Shown: positions 745 through 19,761 of the stretch, piece after piece
Numbering within the stretch: position 1 is the first letter of the stretch
Layout: each line of letters begins with the position of its first letter
UHGV virus genome: UHGV-1363143
Length of the DNA: 64,000 nucleotides
Reading direction: 5' to 3' (one strand)
DNA from: a virus
Position numbers and translations under genes: made by a program
Notes under the pieces: model-generated
The model's input: only the letters and a program-made list of their open reading frames with translations
Database searches by the model: none
Told to the model about the DNA's origin: nothing

Positions 745-760
745 GAGGCCCTAAGGCCTC
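745..760 (-). terminator. putative intrinsic terminator after groEL
   Basis: Hairpin gaggcc-ctaa-ggcctc at 745-760, followed on the minus strand by a U-rich stretch (uuauuauu). Confidence 0.35.
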
Positions 761-766
761 ACAGTA

Positions 767-2585
<1,819 letters not shown>

Positions 2586-2596
2586 ATTTATACCTC

Positions 2597-3289: not shown

Positions 3290-3304
3290 AATTAAGTCTA
3301 CCTC

Positions 3305-3712
3305 CTACCAGTACCTTAATCCTTCTTTAGGTATTTCTATTTTTCTAGTAGTCATATAATAAGCTATTCTATTGACATATCTTGCTCCTTCTACTAGCCA
3401 AGCTTCTTCATCTTCACAATCAATAACAGTATAAACATGTACATCTGAGAAAGTATTTGCGACCTCATTAGCAGCTCTACAATCATCCCATCTGAATTTG
3501 TCTCTTAAAAATTCTACTTTTTCATTTCCCCCTGGCATAATAAAATATTTTTCATTATCTTTAAAGAAATTTTCTAGAGCCTCCTCCTGTGCATCTGTCA
3601 TTTCATCAACTTCTATGCAATAACCTCCACATTCAGGACATCCTTCATCATGTTCATCTGTTTCAACAATCTCTTCTCCTAAGTAATCACATTCTTGACA
3701 TCTCCAAGCCAT
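3305..3712 (-). CDS. hypothetical zinc-ribbon protein
   Basis: CxxC...CxxC pairs (CQECD / CPECGGYC) at the N-terminus. Confidence 0.4.
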   Translation of the reverse strand: MAWRCQECDYLGEEIVETDEHDEGCPECGGYCIEVDEMTDAQEEALENFFKDNEKYFIMPGGNEKVEFLRDKFRWDDCRAANEVANTFSDVHVYTVIDCEDEEAWLVEGARYVNRIAYYMTTRKIEIPKEGLRYW

Positions 3713-3739
3713 CTTTGTCTCCTCCTGTATATTTAATTT

Positions 3740-4324
3740 TTATATAATTGATACTTTCGTAGTTTTTATATTAAATGTCTTGCATAATAGATAGTCAATG
3801 TAACCATCTTGCAATACATTGTCCTTATTAACTCTTATAGGTTTTGCAAACTTACCGTTTTCCTTATAATAAGTTAATTTATTTATAACTTTATCAGGTG
3901 ATGGAGTGTGCTCTTTAAAAACTTCTTGTATTTCGATATCATCAACATTTACAAGCATTAAGTTTTCATTAAGCTCATCACATTTCTTTTGAGCTTCTTC
4001 TCTTGTTAAGAATAAGCTCTCTTCTGATCTATTTAACATTTGTGAGCCACAATAACCTTTATACTTTACGACAGATTCTCCATTGTTATTAACTTCAATC
4101 TTAGTTTGCTTAATTACAAAAGGGGTTTCATGTACTATGTTAGTAGTTTTCTTTGATGTAAATGAACCTGCTCCCATACATTCAGGGCATCTCATATTCT
4201 TATTGTTAAATTTAATAGTTCCTTCACCTTCACATATTTCACAAGGTATTTCAACTTTAACCTTTTTTATGGTATATAAACTTTCTCCATTTAGAAATTT
4301 AACTGGTATTTGCAATGTATTCAT
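3740..4324 (-). CDS. hypothetical zinc-ribbon protein
   Basis: CEICEGEG...CPECMGAG double CxxC motif. Confidence 0.4.
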   Translation of the reverse strand: MNTLQIPVKFLNGESLYTIKKVKVEIPCEICEGEGTIKFNNKNMRCPECMGAGSFTSKKTTNIVHETPFVIKQTKIEVNNNGESVVKYKGYCGSQMLNRSEESLFLTREEAQKKCDELNENLMLVNVDDIEIQEVFKEHTPSPDKVINKLTYYKENGKFAKPIRVNKDNVLQDGYIDYLLCKTFNIKTTKVSII

Positions 4325-4352
4325 AATAATTTCTCCTTTAGTTTTTTATTTT

Positions 4353-4682
4353 TTATACAGCAAAGAAGTTAAGTGACTTACACTTTGGACAACAAGGCTC
4401 TCCATTAAGTATTAGTTCCTCAGCTTTTTCTGCTGTAATTTTATATTTATCTATTAGTTTGTTAGCATCTATTGTATCCAAATCAAAATGTAGAGGATTT
4501 GGACCTGGTTCTGGTTTTACTATAAAAAATTCTTTAACATGAATTAATCCTTCATAACCTTCTACCTTCCAAAGACCTGTTTCTCCTATGTATTTACAAT
4601 CAATACATTCATTTGAAAATCTTTTTGACATTATTCTACCTCCAGTTATGTATAAACAATTACCTTGTTTAATATTATGCAA
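4353..4682 (-). CDS. hypothetical protein with C-terminal CxxC zinc ribbon
   Basis: CIDCKY... CCPKCKSLNF motifs. Confidence 0.35.
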   Translation of the reverse strand: MHNIKQGNCLYITGGRIMSKRFSNECIDCKYIGETGLWKVEGYEGLIHVKEFFIVKPEPGPNPLHFDLDTIDANKLIDKYKITAEKAEELILNGEPCCPKCKSLNFFAV

Positions 4683-4737
4683 ATAAAAAAAGATAGACTA
4701 TTATTTTTGCCTATCCTATCGAAATATAGTTATTAAA

Positions 4738-5151
4738 TTATTCGCCTCTTAATATTTCTAATTGATCCTTTTCATTTTTAAGTTTTCTGATTAATGCTGT
4801 AATGCAATCGTCAATAGTGTGATTTCTACCACAATAAAACTTAATATAAAAATATTTTCCTATAATTTTTATATCAATTCTTACAGTATTCTCTATAGTA
4901 AAACTTTTATTTATTCTATTATTTATAAGTTCTTTATTGTCTTTAAAATATGATGAACATTCATGAATAATATAATCTTGAACTACTCCACTTTCTAATA
5001 TTTGTTTTAAAATTGTATTATTTAAGTAAAGCTTTTTCTTATTAAAACTTGCTGAAAATCTAAGAGTTGCCATTAAGCATTGCTCCATAGATGTTTTTAT
5101 ATCATTGTCAGTATTGTTATTTATTATTAATTTTCCTGAGTAATATCCCAT
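4738..5151 (-). CDS. hypothetical protein (137 aa), immediately downstream of the mazF-like gene
   Basis: ORF 4 nt downstream of the toxin gene; no recognisable motif. Confidence 0.4.
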   Translation of the reverse strand: MGYYSGKLIINNNTDNDIKTSMEQCLMATLRFSASFNKKKLYLNNTILKQILESGVVQDYIIHECSSYFKDNKELINNRINKSFTIENTVRIDIKIIGKYFYIKFYCGRNHTIDDCITALIRKLKNEKDQLEILRGE

Positions 5152-5154
5152 ATT

Positions 5155-5532
5155 TTACACCGCCTTAAAAGGATCATCTTGTTTAATGTAAGATTTTCTT
5201 CCGAATTGTATGTCAGCAGCTTGATCTATTTTATTCATATATTCAACTGATAATGAGCCTATTTTTTCTCTTAACTGAGTCTTATTAATAGTAGTAATTT
5301 GTTCTAATAGAGCCATAGAAGGTTCTTTTAAACCAAAGCCTTCAATTAATACATGCACACATAACTCTTTAAGCTCACTACTCAATGGAATAGCTTGAAG
5401 AACTGGTGCGAATATGTTATTTGTGTTATTTGAATAAATTATTACTGGTCTAACGCCAATTTGCTGATTCCCTATTCCATACAATTCAGCATAGAAAATA
5501 TCTCCTCTTCTTATTTTTGGTCCTCTCCCCAT
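5155..5532 (-). CDS. mazF: MazF/PemK (NdoA)-family endoribonuclease toxin
   Basis: RGDIFYAELYGIGNQQIGVRPVIIYSNNTNN...LLEQITTINKTQL aligns along its length with Bacillus NdoA/MazF ([29 protein letters not shown]...). Confidence 0.7.
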   Translation of the reverse strand: MGRGPKIRRGDIFYAELYGIGNQQIGVRPVIIYSNNTNNIFAPVLQAIPLSSELKELCVHVLIEGFGLKEPSMALLEQITTINKTQLREKIGSLSVEYMNKIDQAADIQFGRKSYIKQDDPFKAV

Positions 5533-5550
5533 GTTTATCCTCCTGTATGT

Positions 5551-6045
5551 CTAAAAGTAAATCCTTTCTTTTTTCTTTAAATCAATAATCCTTTGATTAG
5601 CAGAGCCTGTATATAGCTGTGCACCTTCACGATTATCTATTTCGAACCTTCCATCAGCTAAGTAATCAGCTATTGAAAGTATTTCGTGTATATATGAATT
5701 ATTCATACCTATTAACTGCTCATAGGTTCTACCAGAATAAATCATTATATTAAGTGATGGGCATTCAGACTTTATTCTTTTACAAAGTTCTAATATTTCC
5801 TTTGGTTGCTCCATAGGATCTCCACCACTAAGAGTAACTCCTTCTATAAATGGACTAGATTCTATATGTTCCATTATTGTATCTATAGGCATACTTACTC
5901 CTAATTCTTTGTTCCATGTATGAGTGTTATGACACCCAGGGCACCCCATTGAGCACCCTTGAGTGAATAGAACATATCTCATACCAGGTCCATTGGCTAA
6001 ACTATCATATAGTTCACCTGCTGTTTGTATGTTCATATAATGCAT
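5551..6045 (-). CDS. nrdG: anaerobic ribonucleotide reductase activating protein NrdG (radical SAM)
   Basis: GCSMGCPGCHN cluster motif and SGGDP motif. The track ORF (5551..6156) overlaps nrdD; the likely real start is MHYMNIQ at 6045 or 6036. Confidence 0.8.
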   Translation of the reverse strand: MHYMNIQTAGELYDSLANGPGMRYVLFTQGCSMGCPGCHNTHTWNKELGVSMPIDTIMEHIESSPFIEGVTLSGGDPMEQPKEILELCKRIKSECPSLNIMIYSGRTYEQLIGMNNSYIHEILSIADYLADGRFEIDNREGAQLYTGSANQRIIDLKKKERIYF

Positions 6046-6049
6046 CTCC

Positions 6050-8218
6050 TTAAAGCTTTTCTTTTTGAGCGTTAGCATAGATTTTTGCGTCGCTATCATT
6101 ATTATGAGCAACTCTATCAGCTCTTTCAGCTTCCTTACCTGCACCAAATCTTTCATCTAAAGCTAAATATCCTGTTATTCTAGATACACCTTGTATTTTT
6201 CTAGAACCACAATTAGGGCATTCTTCTTCAGTTCTTAATAACTGTCCACATTCTTTACAGTATCTAACGTGGAAGTTAATTCCGATATATCCCATATTGG
6301 TATTAGTGAAAGTCCAAGTAATTATTTTTTCTATTTCTTCTGGTGTAGGATAATCATCTAATTCAATATAAGAAATTCTTCCACCATTACATAATTCGTG
6401 GAATGGAGCTTCCTTTTGGATTTTCTCCTTAACAGATATCTTAAATCCTGGATTAATATGATATCCATTAGTATAGTAAGCATGGTCTGTTACTCCTTTT
6501 ATTTCACCGTACTTAGCTTTGTCTATTGCAATAAATCTACCGCAAAGACCTTCTGATGGTGCAGCATAACAGCTCCAATTTAATTTATCTATTTCTTTAT
6601 ACTTATCACAGTATTCTCTAATCATTCTTACTACAGTATCAGCTATTTCTAAAGCTTTTTCATCTTCACCATGATGTTTACCGATAGCAGCCATTAACAT
6701 TTCATGTATTCCAATAAATCCTATTGCATAAGAACCTTGTTTTAAGATAGGTTCAATAGAATCATTTGGCCCAATTTCTTCTGCTCCCACATACATATTA
6801 TTTTCAGTTAAGAAAGGAATGTCTTTTCCTTTTAATTGCTTTAATACACTATATCTGTATAATAATGATTCTCTAGTTAAATCAAGCATTTTTAATAAGC
6901 TATCATATAAGAACTTAATCTTTTCTTCATCTGAACATCCAGTTTCTTTTTGGTGTAATGAAGCTTCTATACCTAATCTAGGTAAATTGATTGTTGTTGG
7001 TGCAATATTGCCCCTTCTCTTAGCTCCTTTAGGCCCATTGATATTATCAATAGTACTTGTTCTACATCCCATTGTGCTTATTCTTACTCCTTGCTCATGT
7101 AAAGGTAAGTTATAAGAAGCATCAATATTTAAGAATGTTGGGTTTAATCTTCTTGAAGCTACTTCACAAGCTATTTTGTATAAGTAGTAATATGGATCAC
7201 CAGGATTTCTATTAACTCCTGACTTAACTGCGAATACCATATTAGGGAATATTAATTGCTCACCAGCACCTAATCCTTTTCCATATTCTATTAATGCATG
7301 CTTACATACTAATGCAGCATCGTCATCCTTAGGTAAACCTATATTTAAAGAAGAGAATACTATTTGAGATCCACTTCTTGATTCCATAGTAGATAAATTG
7401 TACATTACTGATTGCATGGCTTGGCCTACAGCTTTATCAAGCTTAGCCTCAACTCTTGCTTTTATAACATCTTCAGGTTGACCAACCATTAATGCTGAAT
7501 ATTCTTCATATATTTCATCTCTTGTAGCTTTTACAAATACAGCCATATCATTATCGAAGTCATCTATACTTTGTCCTCCGAACATTTGATTTTGAGCACA
7601 TTGTAATAAGATACAAGCTAATTCAGCAGCAACATTAATTCTTTTAGCTGGTCTAATTGTTCCGTATGAAGTTTTAAAACCTGTCTTCAATGGTTCTAAG
7701 CTATGAGAGCAACAATTAAATGTTAAGTTAAAAGCATCTAAATCATGAAGATGATAATCTCCTTGCTCATGTGCTTTCGCAATATGTTTAGGCATGTTAG
7801 CTAAGTTTTGCCACTTATTTGATTCAGAAGCTATTCTTAATAGCTTTGCTCCAAAGTTATTACCAACATTACCATTATCTCTATCAGTATGAACACCAAT
7901 CTTTCTAATAGCTTTCATTATGTCAGATTTAGTTTCTCTTACTTCATTTCTTTCTTTTCTATAATCTAAATATGCATCTTTAGTTAATCTAAATCCATTT
8001 ACATATATAGCTGTTTGAATGAAATCTTGTAGTTTTTCAACTGTGATTTCTGTTTTATTTAACTCTGATATTTTAGCTTCAACTACATCTAAAATAACAT
8101 TAAGAACTTCAGCGTCTATTATTTGTTTTGCACTTTTAGCAGCATTAATAACTGATGCAGCTACCTTTGTTCTATCATAATTTGTTTTTCTACCATCTCT
8201 TTTTATAATTGTAATCAT
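6050..8218 (-). CDS. nrdD: anaerobic ribonucleoside-triphosphate reductase NrdD
   Basis: 722 aa with a C-terminal Zn ribbon (CKECG...CPNCG) and the glycyl-radical motif RITGYLA. Confidence 0.9.
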   Translation of the reverse strand: MITIIKRDGRKTNYDRTKVAASVINAAKSAKQIIDAEVLNVILDVVEAKISELNKTEITVEKLQDFIQTAIYVNGFRLTKDAYLDYRKERNEVRETKSDIMKAIRKIGVHTDRDNGNVGNNFGAKLLRIASESNKWQNLANMPKHIAKAHEQGDYHLHDLDAFNLTFNCCSHSLEPLKTGFKTSYGTIRPAKRINVAAELACILLQCAQNQMFGGQSIDDFDNDMAVFVKATRDEIYEEYSALMVGQPEDVIKARVEAKLDKAVGQAMQSVMYNLSTMESRSGSQIVFSSLNIGLPKDDDAALVCKHALIEYGKGLGAGEQLIFPNMVFAVKSGVNRNPGDPYYYLYKIACEVASRRLNPTFLNIDASYNLPLHEQGVRISTMGCRTSTIDNINGPKGAKRRGNIAPTTINLPRLGIEASLHQKETGCSDEEKIKFLYDSLLKMLDLTRESLLYRYSVLKQLKGKDIPFLTENNMYVGAEEIGPNDSIEPILKQGSYAIGFIGIHEMLMAAIGKHHGEDEKALEIADTVVRMIREYCDKYKEIDKLNWSCYAAPSEGLCGRFIAIDKAKYGEIKGVTDHAYYTNGYHINPGFKISVKEKIQKEAPFHELCNGGRISYIELDDYPTPEEIEKIITWTFTNTNMGYIGINFHVRYCKECGQLLRTEEECPNCGSRKIQGVSRITGYLALDERFGAGKEAERADRVAHNNDSDAKIYANAQKEKL

Positions 8219-8304
8219 CTTTAGTAACCTCTTTTCTTTGCTAATTTCTTCATACTCTATTATTACTAATAGCTAGCTCCTTATTGTGGGTGCTAGCTAT
8301 CAAA

Positions 8305-8919
8305 TTAATATATTTTCTTCTTCTCAGCAAAGTGGTCTACGATGTATTTACTCCAACCTTCTAATTTTTCATAATTAGCTATTAATTCATTTATGTCCAT
8401 CCATTGGCCAATTAAATTGTCCTTTTCTTTAACTATAACTTCACCAGTAGCATGTGCTAATATCACAACTCCTGTATGATCACTTGTACTTGAAGCTAAA
8501 TCTCTTACATAACCAATTATTTCTAATGGTTTTAATATATCAGCTTGAACTTCTTCAAATAATTCTCTTACAGCTGCTTTGAACAATACTTCTCTTCCTT
8601 CATCACATTTATCTATGTGACCTCCACAAGCTATGCTTACTTTATCGACAAGTCTTGAATCACCAGCAACTCTTTTTGTTGTAAATACTTTTTGACCGCT
8701 TTCATCTAATATTAGAATATACGGTATTATTTGTTGCATATAAGGTTGTCCTTCTGCATCATACCTATAAATAAATTCACCCATAGAATCAAACTGTCCC
8801 CAAATTCTAACATCATGTTTTAATGGCGTAAATCCGTCAGGTATAAACTCTACTTTTGAATATGGAACAGCAAAAACTTTTTCTTCACCATATTTGGCTA
8901 TCAATTGTTTTCTATTCAT
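8305..8919 (-). CDS. Nudix hydrolase
   Basis: Nudix box GGHIDKCDEGREVLFKAAVRELFEEVQADI (Gx5Ex7REUxEExGU). Confidence 0.7.
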   Translation of the reverse strand: MNRKQLIAKYGEEKVFAVPYSKVEFIPDGFTPLKHDVRIWGQFDSMGEFIYRYDAEGQPYMQQIIPYILILDESGQKVFTTKRVAGDSRLVDKVSIACGGHIDKCDEGREVLFKAAVRELFEEVQADILKPLEIIGYVRDLASSTSDHTGVVILAHATGEVIVKEKDNLIGQWMDINELIANYEKLEGWSKYIVDHFAEKKKIY

Positions 8920-9212
8920 TACACTAATTCTCTCCCATTTAAACCTTTCTTGATTTTAGTTGATAATCCTAATCTAATAGTTCTACTATCAGGAATAACA
9001 ATCTCCTCTTTAGTTGTAGGGTGTTTTGTTTTCTTTCCTGGCACTGTGCCATATTTAAAAACTGCGAAGTTTTTTATTCTAACTTCTTCTCCTTCTTCAA
9101 CAAGTATCTTTGAGATCTCATTAAATGTATCTTCTATAATGTTGTGCGCATCTTTTTGAGATATTTTTTGATTCTCTGATACTCTTTTAGATAAATCTTT
9201 AATATTCTTCAT
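8919..9212 (-). CDS. HU/IHF-family DNA-binding protein
   Basis: 97 aa; the KKDAHNIIEDTFNEISKIL...FAVFKYGTVPGKKTKHPTTKEEIVIPDSRTIRLGLSTKIKKGL pattern matches the HU fold. Confidence 0.7.
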   Translation of the reverse strand: MKNIKDLSKRVSENQKISQKDAHNIIEDTFNEISKILVEEGEEVRIKNFAVFKYGTVPGKKTKHPTTKEEIVIPDSRTIRLGLSTKIKKGLNGRELV

Positions 9213-9257
9213 TTGTGTTCTATCCTTTCGTAAGTCTATATTATAAATTATGTCAAA

Positions 9258-9300
9258 TAAAAAAAATAAGATACCGTAGGGAACTATTTAAGCTCCCTAC
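9258..9300 (-). terminator. rho-independent terminator
   Basis: Hairpin gtaggga-N11-tccctac (9276-9300) followed on the minus strand by U8 (the A-run at 9261-9268). Confidence 0.6.
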
Positions 9301-9306
9301 TTTTAA

Positions 9307-9639
9307 TTACCTTGGTTTAACTTGCTTATTACTTCTCATTCTTAACATAGTTCTATGACATTTAATACATTCATAAGGTCTACACCCTATATTATAGAAT
9401 TGTTGAACTGCCATACATGAGCTATGTGCTTTACCTCTTTTAGGAGTTTCGCCTGTTGATTTTGCGTAATAATTCTTAATACATTTTATTTTTGTCTCAT
9501 TAGTTAATAGGATAGAATCAAATACTATTGTATCTATTTCAGGTTGTCCATCTACTGAATTAAAATTAAGAATTTCTTCTAAATCTTTAATGTTAATGCC
9601 TTCTATCTGATTTCTTGTTTTTCTTTGAAATATGTTCAT
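9307..9639 (-). CDS. hypothetical protein with Cys/His cluster
   Basis: ORF; CMAVQQFYNIGCRPYECIKCH cluster. Confidence 0.4.
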   Translation of the reverse strand: MNIFQRKTRNQIEGINIKDLEEILNFNSVDGQPEIDTIVFDSILLTNETKIKCIKNYYAKSTGETPKRGKAHSSCMAVQQFYNIGCRPYECIKCHRTMLRMRSNKQVKPR

Positions 9640-9651
9640 AAATTCACCTCA

Positions 9652-10116
9652 TTATAATGCTTGCCAACACTCAGGGCATAGCAAATTTAAAGTATCACCA
9701 TCTACAGTGGCACAACAACTGCAAATGTCTTTTCCACAAGTGCTACATTTAGCAGCATCTTCTTTAAAGGTACTAGCTCCACATCCTTCACAAGTATGAT
9801 CTAATACAAGTGGTTCAGCTACAAATGTGGTTTTAGGCTCAGCTTTTTTTTGAGCTGCTTTTTCTTGTTTCATTTTTTCTTGCCTATTTTTATTAGATAG
9901 TTCATTTATTCTATCTCTATCAACCTTTGGCTTACCAGTAAAAGGATCTATTTCTACTTTAGGTTTTAGTTCCTTTTCTTTAGTACGTATCATGTGATTA
10001 TTATTAAAATCACAGCTGTCGATAGTGATACTTGCATGAACCATATGTTTTGCAATATCACTATAAATATTGCAAATTGGCTTTATATCACATTCTTTGC
10101 AAAGTGACATAAACAT
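9652..10116 (-). CDS. hypothetical Cys-rich protein
   Basis: Several CxxC pairs at both termini with a Lys-rich central region. Confidence 0.4.
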   Translation of the reverse strand: MFMSLCKECDIKPICNIYSDIAKHMVHASITIDSCDFNNNHMIRTKEKELKPKVEIDPFTGKPKVDRDRINELSNKNRQEKMKQEKAAQKKAEPKTTFVAEPLVLDHTCEGCGASTFKEDAAKCSTCGKDICSCCATVDGDTLNLLCPECWQAL

Positions 10117-10122
10117 TCCTCC

Positions 10123-11280
10123 TTAAAGTCGCATATTCATTCTCTTAAGAATATATTCTTTCATGACCATTCTTTCGGCTTCGTAAGGAATTTCTTCAAG
10201 TACCTTTTTGATATCTTTATATTGCTTTAACTTTAATTCATTAATCTGACTATCATATGAATTAACTATCTTTTGCATCTTATACTGTCCATAAGTAAGT
10301 GCATTGGTCTTTATATAATCTTCAATATCACATTTAAGCTCTATTGATAATTCACATAAATCTTTGTTGCCAGGTAGGATTAATATTTTAGAATAGATCC
10401 CCTCAGAAGCCAGTTTGTTAATAGCTTTTTCTGCAGCAGCTATTCCTGGTCCATCTCCATCCATTATGAATACAGGAGTCTTATTCCAATTCTTGATTAC
10501 TTTTACATGTTCATCTGTAAAAGCTGTTCCTAATGTTGCAACTATATTTAATGCATTATACTTATCTGCCATTATTACATCCATTGGTCCTTCAGTTATT
10601 CTTATTTCCTCGAAGCTCTCTATTATATTATGCGAACCATAAAAATAACTAGACTTGTTGAATATCTTACTTGTAGGACTGTTTTTATATTTATCATTTC
10701 TTCCTTCAGGAACTTCAAGCCATCTCTTAGTAAATCCTATTGGATACTTATATCTATTAAGTAATGGGAATACTATCTTTTCTCCTTCAAAACCAATCAT
10801 CCATTTTTTAATATCCTTATCACTTAAACCTCTATTATATAAATAGTTTAATGGTACAGAATATAAATTTTTTATATAACTTTCAGTTTGTATTCTTCTA
10901 AGTTTATATAATTTATCAAATTCTGAACTGGGAATAGGTATCTCATACTTTTCACAAAGATCATAAACTGCTTGTTTCCAATTAACTCCTTCTATCCATT
11001 GATAAAAAGCTATACAATCAGAACCATAATTTTTATGTTCTTTGCTAGATGTATTTTTATCTCCAGAATGACAGACCATACAAGCCCAACTATCAAACTG
11101 ACTGTTTCTATATCCTCTCTTCCAAATTCGGAAAGATGGGTTTTTATCATCATGATTAGGGTGAGGACACTTACCTTGATATATATTGGTGCCTGCTTTA
11201 TGGAGAGCTGTGTATTCTGAAACAAGTTCTACTAAATCTACCTTTTCTTTTATTTCATTAATAAACTCTTGCGGAAACAT
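10123..11280 (-). CDS. DnaG-like DNA primase (zinc finger + TOPRIM)
   Basis: CPHPNHDDKNPSFRIW CHC2-type zinc finger, and a TOPRIM motif EGPMDVIM...IMDGDGPG. Confidence 0.7.
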   Translation of the reverse strand: MFPQEFINEIKEKVDLVELVSEYTALHKAGTNIYQGKCPHPNHDDKNPSFRIWKRGYRNSQFDSWACMVCHSGDKNTSSKEHKNYGSDCIAFYQWIEGVNWKQAVYDLCEKYEIPIPSSEFDKLYKLRRIQTESYIKNLYSVPLNYLYNRGLSDKDIKKWMIGFEGEKIVFPLLNRYKYPIGFTKRWLEVPEGRNDKYKNSPTSKIFNKSSYFYGSHNIIESFEEIRITEGPMDVIMADKYNALNIVATLGTAFTDEHVKVIKNWNKTPVFIMDGDGPGIAAAEKAINKLASEGIYSKILILPGNKDLCELSIELKCDIEDYIKTNALTYGQYKMQKIVNSYDSQINELKLKQYKDIKKVLEEIPYEAERMVMKEYILKRMNMRL

Positions 11281-11315
11281 GTTAGAATTTACTCACCTCT
11301 TTCGATTTTGTGTAT

Positions 11316-11341
11316 GTAAAAAGACTCCCTTTAGGGAGTCC
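11316..11341 (-). terminator. rho-independent terminator
   Basis: Hairpin gactccc-ttta-gggagtc followed by UUUUU on the minus strand. Confidence 0.55.
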
Positions 11342-11346
11342 TTGGC

Positions 11347-12315
11347 TTAGTTTTTAGAACTATCTACTATTCTTACTGATCCATTTGCTTGTACAGTTTT
11401 AGTAGCAATTTCTTGTACCTTAGCATAAGCATCATCTAGTTTAGTTTTTGTTACTTCATGAGCAGCTCTTTCACTTGATAAAGCTTCTTCTAATGAAGCA
11501 ATTTTTTCTTCAAGTCTTTCTTTTGCCCATTTAGCTTCTTTTTCAATATAGCTCTTTTGAATATTGAACTCTTTAGAAGCCTTATCTCTACCTTCTTTGA
11601 ATGAAGATTCTTTAATTTCTTCAATCTTATCATTTAAATTAGCAATATGTTCATTTAATTCTGCATTTTTAGCCTCAATTTCTTCAACCTTAGATTCTCT
11701 TTCAGCTACAGCTAATTCCTTTTCTGCTAATACGGATTCTCTAGAAGCTTTTTCATCTTCCCAAGCATCATTATCCTTTTGTCTTTCTCTCTTTAGGTTA
11801 TATTCAAATTCTTCTTTTTCTCTAGCTCTTTCTTTTTGAAGTTTAACCTTTTCTTCTTGGAATTCAGCTCTTAAATCAGTTTTTAATTTATCATATTCTT
11901 CATTTAATTCCTTAACTGATTTAGCAACTTCTGCTCTCTTTTCAGCTAGATTTGCATTCATTTCCGCTACTTTAGCTTCATAATTAGCATCAAGCTCTCT
12001 ATCCTTATCCTTAGCAGCATTTATTAATGCTTCTAAAGAATCAGCTTCCTTCTTTATGCTATATAATTCTTCTATTTCTTCTTCTAATAAGTCTACAGTC
12101 TTTAATAGAGCAGTATACTTATCCTTCATATCATCATTTAATATTTCTAAATCAATTATTTCTTTTGCTTTAGCCTTTACTTCCTTTATTTCCTTAGCCT
12201 TTACAACTTCTGCAGTAGTAGTTCTTCCTTCTTTTAATCTCTTGATTTCTTCTTGCGCTGCATTGTATGCCTCTAATATTTGATCCTTTGTGTTTTTTGA
12301 TGTTACTTTTGCCAT
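11347..12315 (-). CDS. hypothetical coiled-coil protein (Lys/Glu-rich)
   Basis: 322 aa of highly charged heptad-like sequence. Confidence 0.4.
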   Translation of the reverse strand: MAKVTSKNTKDQILEAYNAAQEEIKRLKEGRTTTAEVVKAKEIKEVKAKAKEIIDLEILNDDMKDKYTALLKTVDLLEEEIEELYSIKKEADSLEALINAAKDKDRELDANYEAKVAEMNANLAEKRAEVAKSVKELNEEYDKLKTDLRAEFQEEKVKLQKERAREKEEFEYNLKRERQKDNDAWEDEKASRESVLAEKELAVAERESKVEEIEAKNAELNEHIANLNDKIEEIKESSFKEGRDKASKEFNIQKSYIEKEAKWAKERLEEKIASLEEALSSERAAHEVTKTKLDDAYAKVQEIATKTVQANGSVRIVDSSKN

Positions 12316-12630
12316 TTAAAATTCCTCCATCTCTCTTGTTAAAAATCATTTTAAATCTACATACTTTATATTATGTGAATAATAAAAAAAAGAGCATTAA
12401 AATGAAAAAGCTTCCACTCTAATATCTCTATTTTGATTCTATATCCCAAATTGTTATATTTTTATAATTTTTAGCATACCAATATCCAAAATCTTCGTAA
12501 TTATCAAAGTATCTGTATTGGTATCCATCTTGGCTAAATCGTTGATTATACTTCACTCTTATCATTAGTTCACCTTTAAATATATTGAATATCATAGAGG
12601 CTATTAAATAGCCCCTACATAATTAAAAAA

Positions 12631-13383
12631 TTACTTAATTTCAAATTTATCTTCCTGAGTTTGAATTGTTACAGAAGGGATAACAGTATCTCCTAAATAG
12701 AATTTACCATCTTCAATTCTTCCATTTTTCTTAAGCATACTCTTATCAAGCTTCTCAACTGTTTCTACTTTTATTAAGTCAGGATTCACTTCTTTAACTA
12801 ATGATTTAAGTTCATCCTCATCTCCATAAATATATTTAGGTTGCTGCTTTTTAAACGATAAGTTTCCATATGGAAGTTTTATAGTCCTAGTTTTTTTGCC
12901 TTCTAATTCTTGCATAGCAAAATCTTTTAATATACTAGAGAAATATGATTTCTTTCTATCTATTTCATCTTGTCTTTGCTTTCTAAATGCATTAACTGCC
13001 TTTGAAGTTCTTTCAATTTCTGAATCACATAACTCATTCATTTCTGTTTCTTCAAGTATTAATTGATTATAAAGCTTAATATAGAAATTAGCTTGAGCCT
13101 TAGTCATTGAACCTGGTTCTTCTATAGAATCCACATTTAAATCAGTCTCTGCAAATTCATTCATAAAATCTCTTAGTTCTCCTAAGAAATCTTTTGCAAA
13201 TGCATTTTGAGGCTCTGTAACAGGAGTCTCTACTTTTTCTTCTTTTGGAAGTAAAGTATCAACCATATCTCCAAAAGGCATAATATTATTAGGCTTTTGT
13301 GAGAACGGGTTATTTTTAATTGCTCCTGGTGGTGGAGCAGGAATTGGCATAGGTGGTACAAGTCTTGCATTTTCCATTAACAT
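12631..13383 (-). CDS. hypothetical protein
   Basis: ORF with a Pro-rich N-terminus. Confidence 0.4.
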   Translation of the reverse strand: MLMENARLVPPMPIPAPPPGAIKNNPFSQKPNNIMPFGDMVDTLLPKEEKVETPVTEPQNAFAKDFLGELRDFMNEFAETDLNVDSIEEPGSMTKAQANFYIKLYNQLILEETEMNELCDSEIERTSKAVNAFRKQRQDEIDRKKSYFSSILKDFAMQELEGKKTRTIKLPYGNLSFKKQQPKYIYGDEDELKSLVKEVNPDLIKVETVEKLDKSMLKKNGRIEDGKFYLGDTVIPSVTIQTQEDKFEIK

Positions 13384-13390
13384 ATCCTCC

Positions 13391-14452
13391 TTAAATAAGA
13401 TTTTTGTTTATATAATCCATTATTGTATTTAACCTTTGATTATAATTACCGCCAACTTCAACAATTTTATCTTCAAATCCTCTTTCGATATACATATGTT
13501 TAAGTCTTTGGTGTAATTTTTCTCTTTTTTCTTGGTCGCCGTTAAGTCTTTGGCCATCTGATACCCACTCAACGTCTGGCTTAAGTAAAAATACTACATC
13601 ATATTTATCAGGATCTACACAAGCTTCTACTTGTGCATTTCTCTCACCCATATATAAAATGCTATAATATTGGGTAATAGTTGCATCTGTATCAAAGAAA
13701 CATAATTTATTAGCACATCTTAAAGCTTCGTAATCTTGCTCAACTTGTTGATGAGCAATTCTAGAAAAGTCTTGAGTAGTAAATATCTCCTCATTTCCTC
13801 CAAGGAATCTTTGAGCATAATATCTACCTACTTCTTCACTCCAAGAGGTGTGATATAATTTAGCCAATGATTTAGTTAAAGTAGTTTTCCCACAACTTTC
13901 ACTTCCAGCTATTAATACTTTCTTAGTAAAGAAAGGTCTTGCAGGTCCTAATATATGATCCCAATGTTTGATAGGATTGCTTCTAATTTCAGTAGCACTA
14001 ATGTTATAAGTAGTTCTCATTGGATCAAATAGATCTACCTTAGCATTAGGGAAATACTCTTCTAGCTTTTCTACATATTCATGCTCTCCACAAAAGAAAA
14101 CATCTATATTGTCTCCTACTGCTCCTTTCATTAGTTCAGCCCACATTGGCCATCCATTAGGATACTCAGGTATATTAGATTCATCTAATTTAACTACTTT
14201 GATGTGAGGCATATCTATAAGCTCTTGAGATAACCATTGTATTCTAAGGTTAACATTAATTTCAGGAATGCCTGATTCTTTACAGATTCTTCTGCTTCTT
14301 TCTATATTGTCACTTACTACTACATAAAGTTTTTGAACCTTTGTGGCAGCATTTAATATAGCTGTTAAATGTCCTCTATGTGGAGGAAGGAATTTACCAA
14401 AGTAAACTCCAACCTTAGGCATATCATTTAAATTGAAAATTGAACCACTCAT
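13391..14452 (-). CDS. nadR: NadR-like bifunctional NMN adenylyltransferase / ribosylnicotinamide kinase (no HTH domain)
   Basis: GKFLPPHRGHL nucleotidyltransferase motif near the N-terminus, and a Walker A AGSESCGKTTL in the C-terminal kinase domain. Confidence 0.75.
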   Translation of the reverse strand: MSGSIFNLNDMPKVGVYFGKFLPPHRGHLTAILNAATKVQKLYVVVSDNIERSRRICKESGIPEINVNLRIQWLSQELIDMPHIKVVKLDESNIPEYPNGWPMWAELMKGAVGDNIDVFFCGEHEYVEKLEEYFPNAKVDLFDPMRTTYNISATEIRSNPIKHWDHILGPARPFFTKKVLIAGSESCGKTTLTKSLAKLYHTSWSEEVGRYYAQRFLGGNEEIFTTQDFSRIAHQQVEQDYEALRCANKLCFFDTDATITQYYSILYMGERNAQVEACVDPDKYDVVFLLKPDVEWVSDGQRLNGDQEKREKLHQRLKHMYIERGFEDKIVEVGGNYNQRLNTIMDYINKNLI

Positions 14453-15133
14453 TTATTTCACCTCTTTTATTTGAGCCTTTTTCCATGAATATAATCCAAA
14501 TATAGAATTGCATAGGTAAACTATCCACATAATTAATGTAGCCATCTCTCCTACACCATTTATTAAAGAGAATGCCCACATGATTATTGATACTACATTG
14601 ATAATAACCCATATCACCCATTGCTCCATAAATTGTTTAACCATTAATATCATTGCAATGATAGATAGAATTGTTGAAGTTGAATCTAAGAATGGTAGAT
14701 AATTACCTAAAGACTTTAAGAAGAATCCATAGAAAATAACTAAGGAAACTGATATTCCGACTAATCTAATTCTTCCTTCTGTGCTAAGACTTTTTGATTC
14801 TATTTCTCCATCATTCTCTTCCTTAGCTTTCTTCCACATATAAAGACCTATAAATTGCATAGGCAAGTAATATAACGCATTTAACATTACTTCTCCATAG
14901 AAGCTAGCTTGGTAAGATAAAATAGCATAAGTAGAAACATTAATAGCACCAAATAAATAATTTAATGACATTCTCTTAGCTACTAGGATTACAGATAAGA
15001 TACCTGTTAATGAAGATACAATCGCTAAGGGACTATCTCCCCAATAAAGGCTTAAACCTAGTGTAGATAATGTCGCAACTGTTACCCATAAAATTTCATA
15101 AAGCTTCCAGTTTTTAAATATTGTTTTGTTCAT
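14453..15133 (-). CDS. pnuC: PnuC nicotinamide riboside transporter
   Basis: 226 aa polytopic membrane protein; the LYEILWVTVATLS...GILSVILVAKR...YWGD pattern is PnuC-like. It abuts the nadR-like gene. Confidence 0.75.
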   Translation of the reverse strand: MNKTIFKNWKLYEILWVTVATLSTLGLSLYWGDSPLAIVSSLTGILSVILVAKRMSLNYLFGAINVSTYAILSYQASFYGEVMLNALYYLPMQFIGLYMWKKAKEENDGEIESKSLSTEGRIRLVGISVSLVIFYGFFLKSLGNYLPFLDSTSTILSIIAMILMVKQFMEQWVIWVIINVVSIIMWAFSLINGVGEMATLIMWIVYLCNSIFGLYSWKKAQIKEVK

Positions 15134-15239
15134 ATACTTTTCTCCTTCGATTTTTGTTTCAAAATTATGTTATGTCTTAAAAAATAAAAAGACTACTTTT
15201 ACGAAAAGCTTCGCAAAAATAGTCATATTTTATTTATAA

Positions 15240-15262
15240 AAATAGAGACTGCTATGCAGTCC
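15240..15262 (-). terminator. putative terminator overlapping the SNF2 gene stop
   Basis: Hairpin gactgc-tat-gcagtc followed by UUUUUAU on the minus strand. Confidence 0.4.
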
Positions 15263-17093
15263 CTTTAGCTAAACTCTTAATTAGCTCTAAATCATAATTT
15301 TCTTTTTTAGCAACAACTTTTAGTTGAATTTCATCCCAACTCTCTTGTGCTATTAGTTGATATACAAATACGTTATCATGAACGCTATCAGCTCTTTCTA
15401 GTCTACCATGTCTCTGTGTCTGAATAGCATAACTACCAGCTATATCATATTCAATTAGATATTTGCATTTAGATAAATTTAAACCTTCAGCTCCAGCATC
15501 AGATAACAATAATACCTTATAATCTGGATTATCTCTAAATTTATCATATACTTCAACACTTCTTTCTTGTGATGATAATGTTCCATTAACATATGCTATT
15601 TTAATGTTTTTATTGTATTTATGGATCCTCTCAGTTATAACGTGTTGCATTCTTTCAAATTTTGAAAATACAGCAACCTTTTCTCCTGATTCAACAATTT
15701 CTTCTATTAAATCCATAAATAAATCCATCTTAGGATTCTTCTTTGTTTTCACTACATACTTTTTAGCAAATTCAGAATCACTATCCTCTAAAAGCTTTGG
15801 TTCGTTTGCAATTTCTTGAGCAAATGTTTGTAGTGCTAATATTTGAGCTCCTATTTTTTGAAGCTCAGGATTTAATTTAGCTTCTAGCTCTGTTCTACAT
15901 TTAGATCTTATTGCGAAATCTTGTTCCTTCAATTCATCTAATTGTTGCATGATTGTATTATTCATATCATACTGTTCTTCTGTAAGTGTAACATACCTTT
16001 GAATGACCTGTAATTTAGGTAATTGATCACTTATTTCTTCTTTTGATTTAATCATAATATATGGTCCAATAGTTTTAGTAAGTTTATTGCCGTTACGCAC
16101 TCCTGCAATCCTGCCTCTCCCTGCCCATTTAATAAATTCAGATGAGAATTTACTCCATGAAGGAAATAAGTCTGGTTTAATAAATTTAAAAATTGAATAA
16201 ACGTTTTCAGGATTTTTTGTAATAGGAGTAGCTGTTGCTCCAACCTTTATTTTTGCTTGGAACTCTTGTAACGCTTTTGATCTTTTACTATCTTTTGAAC
16301 CTATCATGTGAATTTCATCAGCAAAGATAAAATCTAATTTCATTGAATGAAGTTGTTGACGAATAGTATCATCAAGTAAGGCTTCATAATTAACTACAAA
16401 CAAATCATGTCCTTCAAACTGTTCTTTAAACTTAGAGGATATCTTTTCTTCTAATCTTAAATTCTCAAGTTTAATATCACTGATTTTATCTTTGTCTTTT
16501 ATCTTGTCTAGTGTTTTAATTAACTTTTTATTCTTGTTAATTTTAGACTTTGTGTATGCTGAAATACTTGATGGCGATTCAACTGCTACAGCTTTTAAGT
16601 CACTAAACTTGCTAACTTCATTAACCCATTGAGTTTTTAATGAAGCTTTTACAACAATTAAGCCTTTTCCTGAAATCATTCCTCTTTCAGTGGCCTCGAT
16701 AAACATTCCTATTCCTGATGGAGTTTTACCAGCTCCACAAGGCAATACTAGTAAAGCATTATTATTATCAAGTACGAATTTAATAGCCTCTCTCTGATAT
16801 ATATATGGCTTTAATTTCATGGATAAGCCTATTTCATCAAGTGATTTATCGTATCTTCGTATTTTAGGTAAACTGTGTTCTACACTTATGTTTAAATAAC
16901 TATAAGCATTGATAAAAGATTGAAGATCTTCTTCATACAGTTCCCATTGTTTAGTGATAAAATTGAAGTGTACAAATGGATTGTACACAACAATATTTAA
17001 AAATTCACTAAGTTCAGTTTTTTTGCCCAAGAATTTCAACCTATATTTTCTAGAAATAACTCTTTCTATTTTTAATAGTTCCATAGGTTGCAT
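15252..17093 (-). CDS. SNF2/RAD54-family helicase
   Basis: LPCGAGKT Walker A, DEIHMIG (DEAH box), and a helicase C region SDAGAEGLNL...QTQRHGRLER. Confidence 0.8.
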   Translation of the reverse strand: MQPMELLKIERVISRKYRLKFLGKKTELSEFLNIVVYNPFVHFNFITKQWELYEEDLQSFINAYSYLNISVEHSLPKIRRYDKSLDEIGLSMKLKPYIYQREAIKFVLDNNNALLVLPCGAGKTPSGIGMFIEATERGMISGKGLIVVKASLKTQWVNEVSKFSDLKAVAVESPSSISAYTKSKINKNKKLIKTLDKIKDKDKISDIKLENLRLEEKISSKFKEQFEGHDLFVVNYEALLDDTIRQQLHSMKLDFIFADEIHMIGSKDSKRSKALQEFQAKIKVGATATPITKNPENVYSIFKFIKPDLFPSWSKFSSEFIKWAGRGRIAGVRNGNKLTKTIGPYIMIKSKEEISDQLPKLQVIQRYVTLTEEQYDMNNTIMQQLDELKEQDFAIRSKCRTELEAKLNPELQKIGAQILALQTFAQEIANEPKLLEDSDSEFAKKYVVKTKKNPKMDLFMDLIEEIVESGEKVAVFSKFERMQHVITERIHKYNKNIKIAYVNGTLSSQERSVEVYDKFRDNPDYKVLLLSDAGAEGLNLSKCKYLIEYDIAGSYAIQTQRHGRLERADSVHDNVFVYQLIAQESWDEIQLKVVAKKENYDLELIKSLAKGTA

Positions 17094-17101: not shown

Positions 17102-17941
17102 TTAGTCATGAACTCCAATTATATCTAGCATTTCTTTACAGATATTAACTGTTTCTAGCTCAAGATCGTATTTTTCGCAGATATAAATAGCTGATTTTCT
17201 GCTCAACAGGTCTTTAGCCAACGAATCTCTTTCTTCTTTATCTATATAGCATTGTTCATCTAAAGAATCATATAGTAATTTAAATTTCTTACCAAGTCTT
17301 TTGTATACCTTAGGAATATACGATTTTGATACCTCTGCTTCCTCGGCTATTTCCGCTTGGCTTTTCCCTTTTATTTTAAGAAGATAAACTCTTCTTTCTT
17401 TATCTGTGCAGGCATCTATTAGTTCTAATAAAAGGTAAATAAAGTCAAGCAAGAACTCTTGAAATACTACTACATCATCTATATCACAATTATCTCCCAC
17501 TAAATTCAAGAGTTCTATACTTTTCTTATCCGAAGAAGGATTAGGAATTATAGAATCTAGCGAATAATTCATCTCATTTCTTAATATGTTATTTTTTTGA
17601 GCCTCTAAAGAACGTTTAATCATTCCAAGCTTGGACTCACATACTATAAATATCCATGATGACAATCCAGATCTATCTAGATCACATTTATTTACATTTT
17701 TAAATATGTGCGCCCATAGCTCATTATGCATATCTTCTAGATCGTATTGACCTTTACTCAAAGTATTAATGGCTGGATACCACTTTTTAGATATATCCCA
17801 CACTAATCTATCATACTCTTCATAAAATATAGTTGTTTCCGGTTCTTTACCATCAATAACACACTTCAGAAATTCTTTATTGCTATTAATATTTTTTAAA
17901 TTCATAATTCTCCTCCCCATTTTACAGACACTATTCTGCAT
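17102..17941 (-). CDS. sigma-70 family RNA polymerase sigma factor (small, sporulation/ECF-like)
   Basis: A region 2-like segment, and a region 4 HTH LTDKERRVYLLKIKGKSQAEIAEEAEVSKSYIPKVYKRL. Confidence 0.5.
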   Translation of the reverse strand: MQNSVCKMGRRIMNLKNINSNKEFLKCVIDGKEPETTIFYEEYDRLVWDISKKWYPAINTLSKGQYDLEDMHNELWAHIFKNVNKCDLDRSGLSSWIFIVCESKLGMIKRSLEAQKNNILRNEMNYSLDSIIPNPSSDKKSIELLNLVGDNCDIDDVVVFQEFLLDFIYLLLELIDACTDKERRVYLLKIKGKSQAEIAEEAEVSKSYIPKVYKRLGKKFKLLYDSLDEQCYIDKEERDSLAKDLLSRKSAIYICEKYDLELETVNICKEMLDIIGVHD

Positions 17942-19181
17942 ATCTATACATATATTGCTTGTCTATTTCTGTAACAAATCTCGACTCTTGAGTCCTGATA
18001 TAGCTTCCTTGCTTAAGCGTATAAATAGGCCTTGTAATAAAAAGGAGTTTTTTTGCTCGTGTAACGGCAACATACATTAACCTTCGTTCTTCTTCGTAAT
18101 CTGCCTCTGTAGTTGCTCTATATGAAGGTATTACTCCCTCATTTGATCCTGCAATAATAACAATATTCCATTCCAATCCTTTACTGCTATGCATAGTTAA
18201 TAACTGTACGCAGTTCTCTTCATCCTGATTTTGTTCTGCAATAGTGCTATCTAAATTTATATTGTCGGATAATTCTTCCATACTTTCAAAGTGAGTGGCT
18301 AATTCTATTAGCTCTTGAATATTTTCTATTCTATCGTCAGCAATGTTTTTCTTTTCACTCTCTCTGATATAAGGAATATAACCTGTTATTCTTAGCATAG
18401 TCTCTATTGCAATGTCTGGAGTGTTAGTCTCCATTTCTACAGATAGTTCCCCTACTATATCAAGAAAATCTTTAGCACTTGACTTTGCTTTTCCTGTTAA
18501 ATTTATTTGCTCTAATGCTTCAATTAAATTACATGAATTTGTTTTTGCAAAGTCAATTATTTTCTCGACTGTTTTGTCTCCTAGTCCTCTTTTTGGTGTG
18601 TTTATTGCTCTTGAGAAAGCAATTGTATCATTAGGGTTTATTATTAACCTAAAATAAGAAATTATATCTTTAATTTCTTTTCTACTATAAAAGTTGGTTC
18701 CTCCTACAATTTTATAAGGAATTCTATATTTAAGAAGAGCATCTTCTATTTGTCTAGATAGATAGTTCATTCTATATAAAATAGCTATATCACTGTACTT
18801 GTAACCATATTTTTTAACTGATAATTCAATTAATTTAACTATTCTTGCTGATTCTGCCATAGGATCTTTTTCAGGAAAAAATATAATTGGATTACCTTTT
18901 TCATTATTAGATCTTAAGCTTTTTTCTACTAGCTGTTTATTATTACTTATTAAACTTTTAGAAGCGTCAACTATCATTGAAGTACTTCTATAATTAGTAT
19001 TTAATAGATGTACTCTCATGCCAGTAAATATGTTTCTCATATTCATTACAGCTTCTATCTTAGCACCTCTAAAAGCATAAATGCTCTGGTCATTATCAGC
19101 AATCATACAAATATTTTGGTTTTCTCCTGTAAGAAGATATATTAATCTTAAATCCATTACAGAAGAATCATGACTCTCATC
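17931..19181 (-). CDS. UvrD/PcrA-family helicase, 3' exon (motif II onward: DESHD...QSIYAFRGA...VTRA)
   Basis: The frame stays open upstream of the annotated Met through KKDESHDSSVMDL. Motifs III-VI of superfamily 1 helicases are present. Confidence 0.6.
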   Translation of the reverse strand, partial: DESHDSSVMDLRLIYLLTGENQNICMIADNDQSIYAFRGAKIEAVMNMRNIFTGMRVHLLNTNYRSTSMIVDASKSLISNNKQLVEKSLRSNNEKGNPIIFFPEKDPMAESARIVKLIELSVKKYGYKYSDIAILYRMNYLSRQIEDALLKYRIPYKIVGGTNFYSRKEIKDIISYFRLIINPNDTIAFSRAINTPKRGLGDKTVEKIIDFAKTNSCNLIEALEQINLTGKAKSSAKDFLDIVGELSVEMETNTPDIAIETMLRITGYIPYIRESEKKNIADDRIENIQELIELATHFESMEELSDNINLDSTIAEQNQDEENCVQLLTMHSSKGLEWNIVIIAGSNEGVIPSYRATTEADYEEERRLMYVAVTRAKKLLFITRPIYTLKQGSYIRTQESRFVTEIDKQYMYRYAE

Positions 19182-19761
19182 CTTTTTTGTAAATCTAATT
19201 AATAATATAATGTTTCATCTTTTTAGAATAATCTCCTTTCAACACGAACTTACGTTCTTATCATATTTTAGCATATTTCCAATATATACTCAATAATAAA
19301 TACATTTAACAAAAGTATTTATTATTCACAAAAAAAGCGTAACATTAACAATAATATTAGATTTTTCTTACTTTCGCAAGTGTGGACTATATCATCATCT
19401 CATAATTACTAATTTTAGCCCTATTGCTAGTTCTAGTTTTATGAGAATGCCTCTTGTTTCACGCAGAGTTACCTTTCGGCACTTTGCTAGTCTCTGAACC
19501 TTCTTCCACCCTGGCATATAATTATATGTTACATTGGAAGCTTGGCTGCTGATTCCCCATTATTAAGGTCCTTAGCACCATCATATTTAATGATAGCTTT
19601 TATTTCAGCTTAGACTATCCTTAGTTATTTTTTCTGCCTTTCGGCGACATTCACGCTTGTCCTTACGGACTACGTTGTAGTTAACTTAGGCTTTAGGGAT
19701 TGTTCCAGCAATTAAAGAGGTACGCACACTACGTCACCGTAATATGGGCCGATGAGTTCAG
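19182..19761 (-). ncRNA. candidate self-splicing group I intron (ORF-less) interrupting the UvrD-type helicase gene
   Basis: About 580 nt with no ORF and higher GC than its surroundings. It has two cGAAAg tetraloop hairpins on the minus strand. The 5' exon ends in U (gtt) and the insert ends in G. The exon join restores YQYIV|DESHD (motif II). Confidence 0.5.

Follow-up and report, generated by a model that had tools for sequence, protein, structure and literature searches.

Do two adjoining genes, pnuC and a nadR-like gene, give a gut phage its own route from nicotinamide riboside (NR) to nicotinamide adenine dinucleotide (NAD+), and what would such a route serve? The question is raised by a 64,000-nucleotide stretch of the UHGV virus genome UHGV-1363143, referred to here as the window. 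A preliminary description of this DNA had noted a phage-borne pnuC next to a nadR-like gene without the helix-turn-helix (HTH) repressor domain, as well as a Nudix hydrolase about 4.5 kb away, and had read the three as a new NAD+ salvage set that could counter NAD+-depleting defences. The pair held up: both open reading frames (ORFs) were found on the minus strand where they had been placed, and identity with a gut contig, a tRNA array and PHROG matches agreed with a phage source. Based on sequence comparison, pnuC-nadR is very probably an NR salvage cassette of the NARP3 type, carried by a jumbo phage of the human gut with a genome of about 238 kb and a guanine plus cytosine (GC) content of 31%. 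The name NARP3 was given to the phage pair Bas30_87 and Bas30_86 (Sci Adv, August 2026; PMC13464706), for which NR import, conversion of NR to nicotinamide mononucleotide (NMN) and then NAD+, crystal structures and rescue from NAD+ depletion by Sir2-HerA were reported (PMC13464706).

The pnuC product matched PF04973 (E 1e-46), phrog_1880 (E 3e-60) and the PnuC NR-transporter equivalog TIGR01528, on which it scored 150 bits against a cutoff of 42.45. It aligned with the structure of N. mucosa PnuC (PDB 4QTN; E 8e-43) at 38% identity, and was 39% identical to the Bas30_87-like PnuC of phage Wa28. The substrate-site residues Q93 and N179 were conserved, corresponding to Q94 and N180 of Bas30_87. 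The 4QTN contact Q196 is a Met in the window protein, the same replacement as in Bas30_87, and positions that depart from one of these two references agree with the other.

Two enzymatic domains were recognized in the NadR-like protein: a cytidylyltransferase-like NMN adenylyltransferase (NMNAT) domain at residues 16-158 (CTP_transf_like, E 4e-5) and an AAA_28 P-loop kinase domain at residues 178-340 (E 7.5e-34). The protein covered positions 61-406 of the 411-position NF005988 profile. Since nothing matched positions 1-60, the N-terminal HTH is absent, and only 12 residues precede the NMNAT domain. The protein is predicted to be an enzyme only, with no repressor role. It also matched phrog_3462 (E 2e-106), so that existing PHROGs families cover both members of the pair. 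The preliminary description had suggested profile searches for PnuC, NadR and the Nudix protein, and each of them was positive, with PF00293 (E 5e-9) found in the last and E-values that chance would not produce. The best match among solved structures was PDB 9x6f/9x6h (E 1e-70, 39.5% identity). Since this chain is 99.7% identical to the NadR of the T5-like phage Wa28, it was taken to be the Bas30_86 structure of the NARP3 paper. The next matches were NadR of H. influenzae (1LW7, E 1.5e-57), E. coli (8X7F) and L. lactis (6GYE).

The motifs of the classical enzyme were intact, namely HRGH at residues 25-28 (HxGH), ISATEIR at 151-157 (ISxTxxR), GSESCGKT at 183-190 (Walker A) and FFDTD at 252-256 (Walker B), and all four were invariant in 16 homologues of 59-81% identity. 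Nine Bas30_86 residues named in the NARP3 paper are identical in the window protein (K10, F11, S37, E80, P84, G89, F110, I141 and D275), most of which were mutation-tested (PMC13464706). Two more positions show conservative exchanges relative to Bas30_86 (E230 to D and D115 to E).

In some phage homologues of NadR, N-terminal extensions were observed instead of the bacterial HTH. P0079 (615 amino acids, aa) carries about six CxxC...C..C zinc-ribbon repeats, P0070 (415 aa) one zinc ribbon, and P0078 and P0086 (488-496 aa) an unrelated domain of about 140 aa. The longer homologues (410-615 aa) were considered as PnuC-NadR fusions, which was rejected, the extensions being zinc-ribbon repeats or the unknown domain of about 140 aa. 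Either true fusions, possibly with nucleic-acid binding, or wrongly called start codons could account for these extensions.

The two cassette genes are co-directional with pnuC first, and the TAA stop codon of pnuC directly abuts the ATG of nadR. A strong Shine-Dalgarno sequence (GAAGGAGA) was found 8 nt upstream of the pnuC ATG, and the site of nadR is also strong. The cassette sits between the genes for a SNF2 helicase and Mu Gam, the latter being the next gene after nadR. The tandem hairpins in front of pnuC (Table 1) fold at -31 kcal/mol (z = -6.5), and 0 of 200 shuffled sequences folded as well. This arrangement suggests a new transcription unit, or an attenuated one, beginning at pnuC-nadR. 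The single hairpin further downstream folds at -16.4 kcal/mol (z = -4.8), and a terminator scan of the region returned 12 sites while 2.5 were expected. Searches upstream of pnuC for an NAD+ riboswitch or a pnuC-motif RNA yielded chance-level matches only, at permissive Rfam thresholds.

The GC contents of pnuC and nadR (31-33% overall, 19-26% at third codon positions) are equal to those of the neighbouring phage genes. The ratio of nonsynonymous to synonymous substitution rates (dN/dS) was 0.17 for pnuC and 0.10 for nadR against the orthologues of L098, an 81%-identical relative for which dS exceeded 1 and was near saturation. Neighbouring core genes gave values in the same range. Purifying selection acts on pnuC and nadR alike.

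In the proposed mechanism, NR would diffuse across the host membrane through PnuC. The C-terminal P-loop kinase domain of the NadR-like protein, a ribosylnicotinamide kinase (RNK), would convert NR and ATP into NMN, which would be trapped in the cell, and the N-terminal NMNAT domain would adenylate NMN to yield NAD+. NR uptake by PnuC proteins is driven by NR phosphorylation. Translational coupling through the TAA-ATG junction and the position in a block of replication genes may lead to co-expression during genome replication, by which NAD+ would be kept up. The phage could benefit from this in two ways, by obtaining NAD+ for its own NAD+-dependent DNA ligase and by resisting NAD+-depleting defences (SIR2, TIR and similar). 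The counter-defence logic of the preliminary description is reasonable, since resistance was demonstrated for the homologous Bas30_87/Bas30_86 pair, which overcomes the depletion caused by Sir2-HerA (PMC13464706). For the window pair, we infer the enzyme activities, the expression timing and the phage benefit from the sequence.

Several observations weigh against the NARP3-type assignment. The identity to the characterized pair Bas30_86/87 is only 38-40%. In the window PnuC, N45 of Bas30_87 is replaced by Gly (G44), which is also the residue in N. mucosa PnuC. Residues of the modelled NR pocket of Bas30_86 are changed in the window NadR (K163 to P, D164 to F, R167 to K, S112 to G and V139 to Y), these positions being docking-derived and several of them differing from bacterial NadR too. 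A sigma-70 promoter scan gave 43 sites with 49 expected, which is the background rate, and no promoter was assignable.

Table 1. Features of the window discussed in the text, with positions counted from its first nucleotide.
Feature	Coordinates	Strand	Remarks
pnuC	14453-15133	-	Putative PnuC-type NR transporter, 226 aa; first cassette gene
nadR-like gene	13391-14452	-	Predicted HTH-less bifunctional NMN adenylyltransferase / ribosylnicotinamide kinase, 353 aa; second cassette gene
Two tandem terminator-like hairpins with U-tracts	15191-15264	-	Between the SNF2 helicase stop and pnuC
Terminator-like hairpin	9276-9300	-	Divides the block from pnuC to primase from the HU-Nudix-nrdD-nrdG block
HU-like DNA-binding protein	8919-9212	-	First gene of the HU-Nudix-ribonucleotide reductase block; PF00216, E 3.5e-16
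Nudix hydrolase, YmaB/TM1382 type	8305-8919	-	204 aa; PF00293; phrog_8902
nrdD, anaerobic ribonucleotide reductase	6050-8218	-	ATP-cone and NRDD Pfam matches on the identical gene in L001
nrdG, radical-SAM activase of NrdD	5551-6036	-	161-aa gene call; Fer4_12 and Radical_SAM matches; coordinates converted from L001 through 100%-identity mapping
PemK/MazF-type toxin homologue	5155-5532	-	E 2e-19
GroEL-type chaperonin	767-2368	-	
Sigma-70-like factor	17102-17941	-	
UvrD-family helicase, split	17931-19157 and 19712-20407	-	
PAPS-reductase-like protein	43542-44510	-	
tRNA gene array	50075-53885	-	14 tRNA genes
Skipping-rope RNA (RF02924)	50407-50489	-	58.2 bits; gathering score 36.7
tRNA-Tyr(ata)	51319-51389		ARAGORN call
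GOLLD RNA (RF02032)	51412-51857	-	171.8 bits; gathering score 150; E 1.6e-46
ParB-like partition protein	57815-58819	+	

The cassette belongs to a previously undescribed jumbo phage of the gut, about 238 kb in size. Over 21,062 bp, the window has 100% identity with a 238,204-bp contig from a human-gut metagenome (ERZ28636782 scaffold_19), and the NadR protein occurs with identical sequence on at least 10 gut contigs. GC is about 31% across the window, and up to about 56 kb nearly all genes lie on one strand. Profile-library scans of about 40 window ORFs returned PHROG matches and phage-type replication genes, including topoisomerase II subunits, a UvsX-like recombinase, primase, Mu Gam and the SNF2 and UvrD helicases; no capsid or tail genes were identified among the ORFs scanned. 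When the 7.4-kb region was compared with 50,697 phage records by megablast, there were zero matches at the DNA level, and neighbouring proteins such as SNF2 were at most 27% identical to those of known phages. A Firmicutes-type host is hinted at by the strong Shine-Dalgarno sites, by endolysins of the SH3_3 or Amidase type and by a SpoIIID-like gene found in relatives. The GC of 31% is far from the roughly 58% of the Christensenellales loci with the nearest NadR.

The relatives of this phage show how the cassette is placed. L098 has an abutting pnuC-nadR at the same SNF2-Gam site. The order pnuC before nadR was also held in four further jumbo phages (L096, L097, L099 and L100), in which the two genes are spaced by 1.1-2.7 kb of small ORFs and often accompanied by other NAD/ADP-ribose genes, namely those for nicotinate phosphoribosyltransferase (NAPRTase), a DarG-like macrodomain, NADAR or LigA. 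L011 and L012, whose SNF2 and primase are 44-53% identical to those of the window, keep the backbone of SNF2, Gam, primase and HU-Nudix-ribonucleotide reductase (RNR) genes with different cargo in the SNF2-Gam slot. The pair was absent from the examined loci of L011 (20 kb), L012 and L014. Judged by this gene order, the cassette is accessory cargo in a variable SNF2-Gam slot in the lineage of the window phage.

Looser NAD/ADP-ribose islands were observed in jumbo phages of about 250 kb (L096 1-12626, L097 7052-14012 and L100 5380-9654). They contain a NAPRTase-family gene, PnuC, 1-2.7 kb of small ORFs, NadR, a Nudix protein similar to NudE or ADP-ribose (ADPR) diphosphatase, and a DarG-like macrodomain or NADAR protein. 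SIR2-domain genes were found in L011 (7488-8273 and 18228-18968) and L012 (8256-9071), with no pnuC-nadR in the examined loci. Both phages have one in the replication module between primase and HU, and a second SIR2 gene of L011 adjoins LigA. When the SIR2, LigA, NAPRTase, Macro and NADAR proteins of these relatives were searched against the window by tblastn, none was found.

The origin of the pair was considered from the side of NadR. Orthologues of the window protein occur on many contigs of 170-256 kb at 62-93% identity. The nearest cellular proteins (58-62% identity) are HTH-less and encoded on the chromosomes of Clostridia from gut and rumen, Christensenellales for the most part, while identity was 38% to the NARP3 archetype and 33-37% to gamma-proteobacterial NadR. 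The NadR lineage groups with that of Clostridia, apart from the enterobacterial-phage clade. The bacterial relatives were found by a species-genome scan with alignment; a single NadR sequence used as query confirmed none. In 80 bacterial nadR loci with a mean GC of 58.5%, pnuC was found within 4 kb of nadR in none (0/80, three PnuC queries), and therefore the pairing is a phage construction. Capture of a ready-made host operon was rejected on the same count. Since the GC of the cassette is phage-like rather than that of the bacterial loci, its acquisition is old enough for full amelioration. Among deposited phage records, tblastn found NadR in 776, including Enterococcus, Bacillus, Lactobacillus and Prevotella phages, and PnuC in 474, including Bacillus and Prevotella phages. 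Chromosomal genes for HTH-less NadR, of 347 aa, are common across Christensenellales and further Clostridia of gut and rumen (loci L016-L095).

The identity of about 39% to the NARP3 pair and the other gene order suggest that the PnuC plus NadR solution was assembled more than once. A more specific scenario can be offered only tentatively. The jumbo-phage cassette may have arisen independently of enterobacterial-phage NARP3, when an enzyme-only NadR of Clostridia type was combined with a PnuC acquired separately. A dispersed NAD/ADP-ribose island may then have condensed into the translationally coupled pair, whose main task in an anaerobic host of Firmicutes type would be NAD+ supply to the NAD+-dependent ligase of the phage and not counter-defence. 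If true, this would be convergent evolution of phage NR salvage under another selective driver.

The Nudix gene was indeed found at about the distance given in the preliminary description (4,472 bp from nadR), with five genes and a terminator-like hairpin between. The sole significant structural relative of its product was T. maritima TM1382 (PDB 3E57; E 1.7e-13, residues 43-192), and it had zero matches in NCBIfam. It was 30-33% identical to SP-15 gp092 (annotated as BSU17400-like), an SPbeta-like protein and HSE3 gp107, which is annotated as "enzyme involved in deoxyribonucleotide synthesis". BSU17400 is a Nudix protein beside nrdI, nrdE and nrdF, described as TM1382-like and as having a part in deoxyribonucleotide synthesis (PMC11904672). 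The window protein resembles the YmaB/TM1382 family in its length of about 200 aa, its N-terminal extension, an atypical Nudix box (GGH-x9-E-x7-RE-x2-EE) and the adjoining RNR genes. Unlike B. subtilis YmaB, which follows the class Ib genes nrdEF, it precedes the class III genes nrdD-nrdG; the likeness to YmaB was drawn through BSU17400-like phage proteins and TM1382, not the YmaB sequence itself.

In the window, the Nudix gene is directly downstream of HU and directly upstream of nrdD-nrdG. The order HU, Nudix, RNR is kept in L098, L011, L014 (with NrdD) and L012 (with NrdE-NrdF-NrdD). Because this linkage is kept where pnuC-nadR is absent from the locus, the Nudix protein was placed outside the NAD set, contrary to the preliminary description. 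It is predicted to be a YmaB-like nucleotide pyrophosphohydrolase that works with the RNR genes and has a function separate from that of the pair.

How far, then, could the locus be explained otherwise? A three-gene set, in which the window Nudix would act with PnuC and NadR, for example as a pyrophosphatase for ADP-ribose or NADH in the manner of NARP2 NatV, has precedents: NMNAT-Nudix fusions exist (KVP40 NatV), and a Nudix gene abuts nadR in L096 and L100 and lies 2.3 kb away in L097. However, those NadR-linked proteins are NudE- or ADP-ribose-diphosphatase-like and matched the window Nudix at E 0.04, related no further than the shared fold motif. No NudE/AdpP-like Nudix follows nadR in the window, Mu Gam being there instead. 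A dNTP pyrophosphohydrolase activity, preliminary only, was reported for YmaB of the B. subtilis nrd operon (PMC5960316), and this also speaks against a NAD+-related role, as do the TM1382/YmaB (BSU17400) type of the window protein, its conserved place between HU and RNR in L011, L012 and L014, and the genes and hairpin that separate it from nadR. We consider the three-gene set highly improbable. For annotation, it follows that a Nudix gene near NAD genes in a phage does not always belong to NAD metabolism: the YmaB type travels with RNR, and a distinct ADP-ribose-diphosphatase type with nadR. Equally improbable is a PnuC that carries a substrate other than NR, with NadR acting only on host-derived NMN or NR. 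The Pnu family does include several substrate classes (thiamine, riboflavin and deoxynucleosides besides NR), and the replacements at the Q196 and N45 positions would fit such a change. But the former is also present in Bas30_87, for which NR binding was shown by experiment, the Gly is common to the NR transporter of N. mucosa, the TIGR01528 score is far above its cutoff, and the linkage to nadR is tight and conserved. The preliminary description had itself allowed for a host-derived passenger with inactive domains. A recently captured passenger, inactive or irrelevant to the phage, has in its favour that the closest cellular NadR proteins are chromosomal in Clostridia, which points to an ultimately cellular origin. 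It is contradicted by the intact catalytic motifs, dN/dS of 0.10-0.17, GC like that of the phage neighbours and not of the bacterial loci, the lack of a linked pnuC in those loci, and orthologues across many large contigs, and we give it hardly any weight.

A different role for the same chemistry deserves more attention. The cassette could provide metabolic autonomy, feeding the phage's own NAD+-consuming replication enzymes, notably LigA, or offsetting poor NAD+ synthesis by the host, and we regard this as quite possible. It corresponds to the idea of the 174 "NAD-jumbo phages" from animal guts (Microbiome 2024), 68 of which have pnuC and some nadR clusters; supply of phage NAD+-dependent enzymes and counter-defence were both proposed for them, their presence in the human gut was noted, and more than 50% encode an NAD-dependent ligase (PMC11662467). 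The window phage has such a ligase: L101, which is 99.99% identical to window positions 1-10443 and thus the same phage, encodes at 11682-13580 a 632-aa LigA with a KMDG adenylation motif and OB and BRCT domains. The gene lies outside the window, 1.2-3.1 kb from position 1, and belongs to the gene block of pnuC-nadR, about 16 kb downstream of the pair. Since the phage itself encodes LigA, and since in L099 pnuC is preceded by LigA at a distance of 1.5 kb, NAD+ supply to phage replication is as plausible as counter-defence. The embedding of the cassette among replication genes (SNF2, Gam, primase and RNR) points the same way. On the other side, L011 has LigA and two SIR2-domain genes without pnuC-nadR in its 20-kb locus, so LigA needs no nearby cassette; a variable SNF2-Gam slot is typical of accessory or counter-defence cargo; and the sole experiments on such a pair concern counter-defence (PMC13464706). 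The two roles are mutually compatible and inseparable by sequence alone. A LigA in the genome bears on how the "anti-defence" NAD+ pathways of jumbo phages are read.

Other features of the window were recorded. Its tRNA array includes an odd tRNA-Tyr(ata) anticodon, for which Rfam backing is weak (34.5 bits), and a GOLLD RNA; the skipping-rope RNA stands beside the array. GOLLD, a large structured RNA without an assigned function, has been described in phages and Lactobacillales. The UvrD-family helicase is encoded by two ORFs about 550 nt apart, one for the N-terminal part (231 aa) and one for the C-terminal part (408 aa); in L012, a single 630-aa gene encodes it. The interruption may represent an intron, what is left of a homing endonuclease or a true split of the gene, and Rfam gave zero matches there at gathering thresholds. 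The PemK/MazF homologue directly follows nrdG with no obvious antitoxin identified, and homologues were also found in L014, L098 and L099. Near 56 kb, both the gene orientation and the GC skew are reversed.

The NR-to-NAD+ route of the preliminary description stands in that the pair has all the sequence features needed, but the route is not an undescribed one. Phage NadR was noted to be usually in an operon with PnuC in the paper on NARP1 and NARP2, where the operon was proposed as a further NAD+ reconstitution pathway (bioRxiv 10.1101/2024.02.11.579819, Discussion, Fig. S3). The NAD-jumbo phages followed in 2024 and NARP3 in 2026. The locus therefore adds little that is conceptually new, and its value is modest, for annotation and for the question of independent assembly. 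Its relation to each known system can be stated. NARP1 (Adps and Namat) and NARP2 (Nampt and the NMNAT-Nudix protein NatV) also reconstitute NAD+ in phage infection, and NARP2 likewise ends in an NMNAT step. Their substrates differ, however, being ADPR and nicotinamide, or nicotinamide and phosphoribosyl pyrophosphate (PRPP), as do their enzymes, and the window NadR is not fused to a Nudix domain as NatV is. The NAPRTase-family protein of L096 had zero tblastn matches in the window, Adps and Nampt not being searched directly. The bacterial PnuC and NadR proteins (4QTN, 1LW7, 8X7F and 6GYE) belong to the same two families with the same predicted chemistry. Unlike the window NadR, the trifunctional NadR of enterobacteria carries an HTH repressor domain at the N terminus, and pnuC is not linked to its gene.

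Like the NAD-jumbo phages, the carrier is a gut jumbo phage with pnuC and nadR salvage genes and an NAD+-dependent LigA; unlike them, it has a tight cassette between SNF2 helicase and Mu Gam, and their study is an annotation-based catalogue (PMC11662467). The closest counterpart is NARP3 of Escherichia phage TrudiRoth and other T5-like Demerecviridae, which is also a two-gene phage cassette for a PnuC-type transporter and an HTH-less bifunctional RNK/NMNAT NadR; the catalytic motifs are conserved, as are the majority of residues singled out in the paper. The window pair, known from its sequence, has the order pnuC-nadR with abutting codons, whereas T5-like phages have nadR before pnuC, and its carrier is a low-GC gut jumbo phage in place of a siphovirus of about 110 kb. 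The likely range of NARP3-type cassettes is hereby extended from enterobacterial phages of about 110 kb to an uncultured low-GC jumbo lineage of the human gut.

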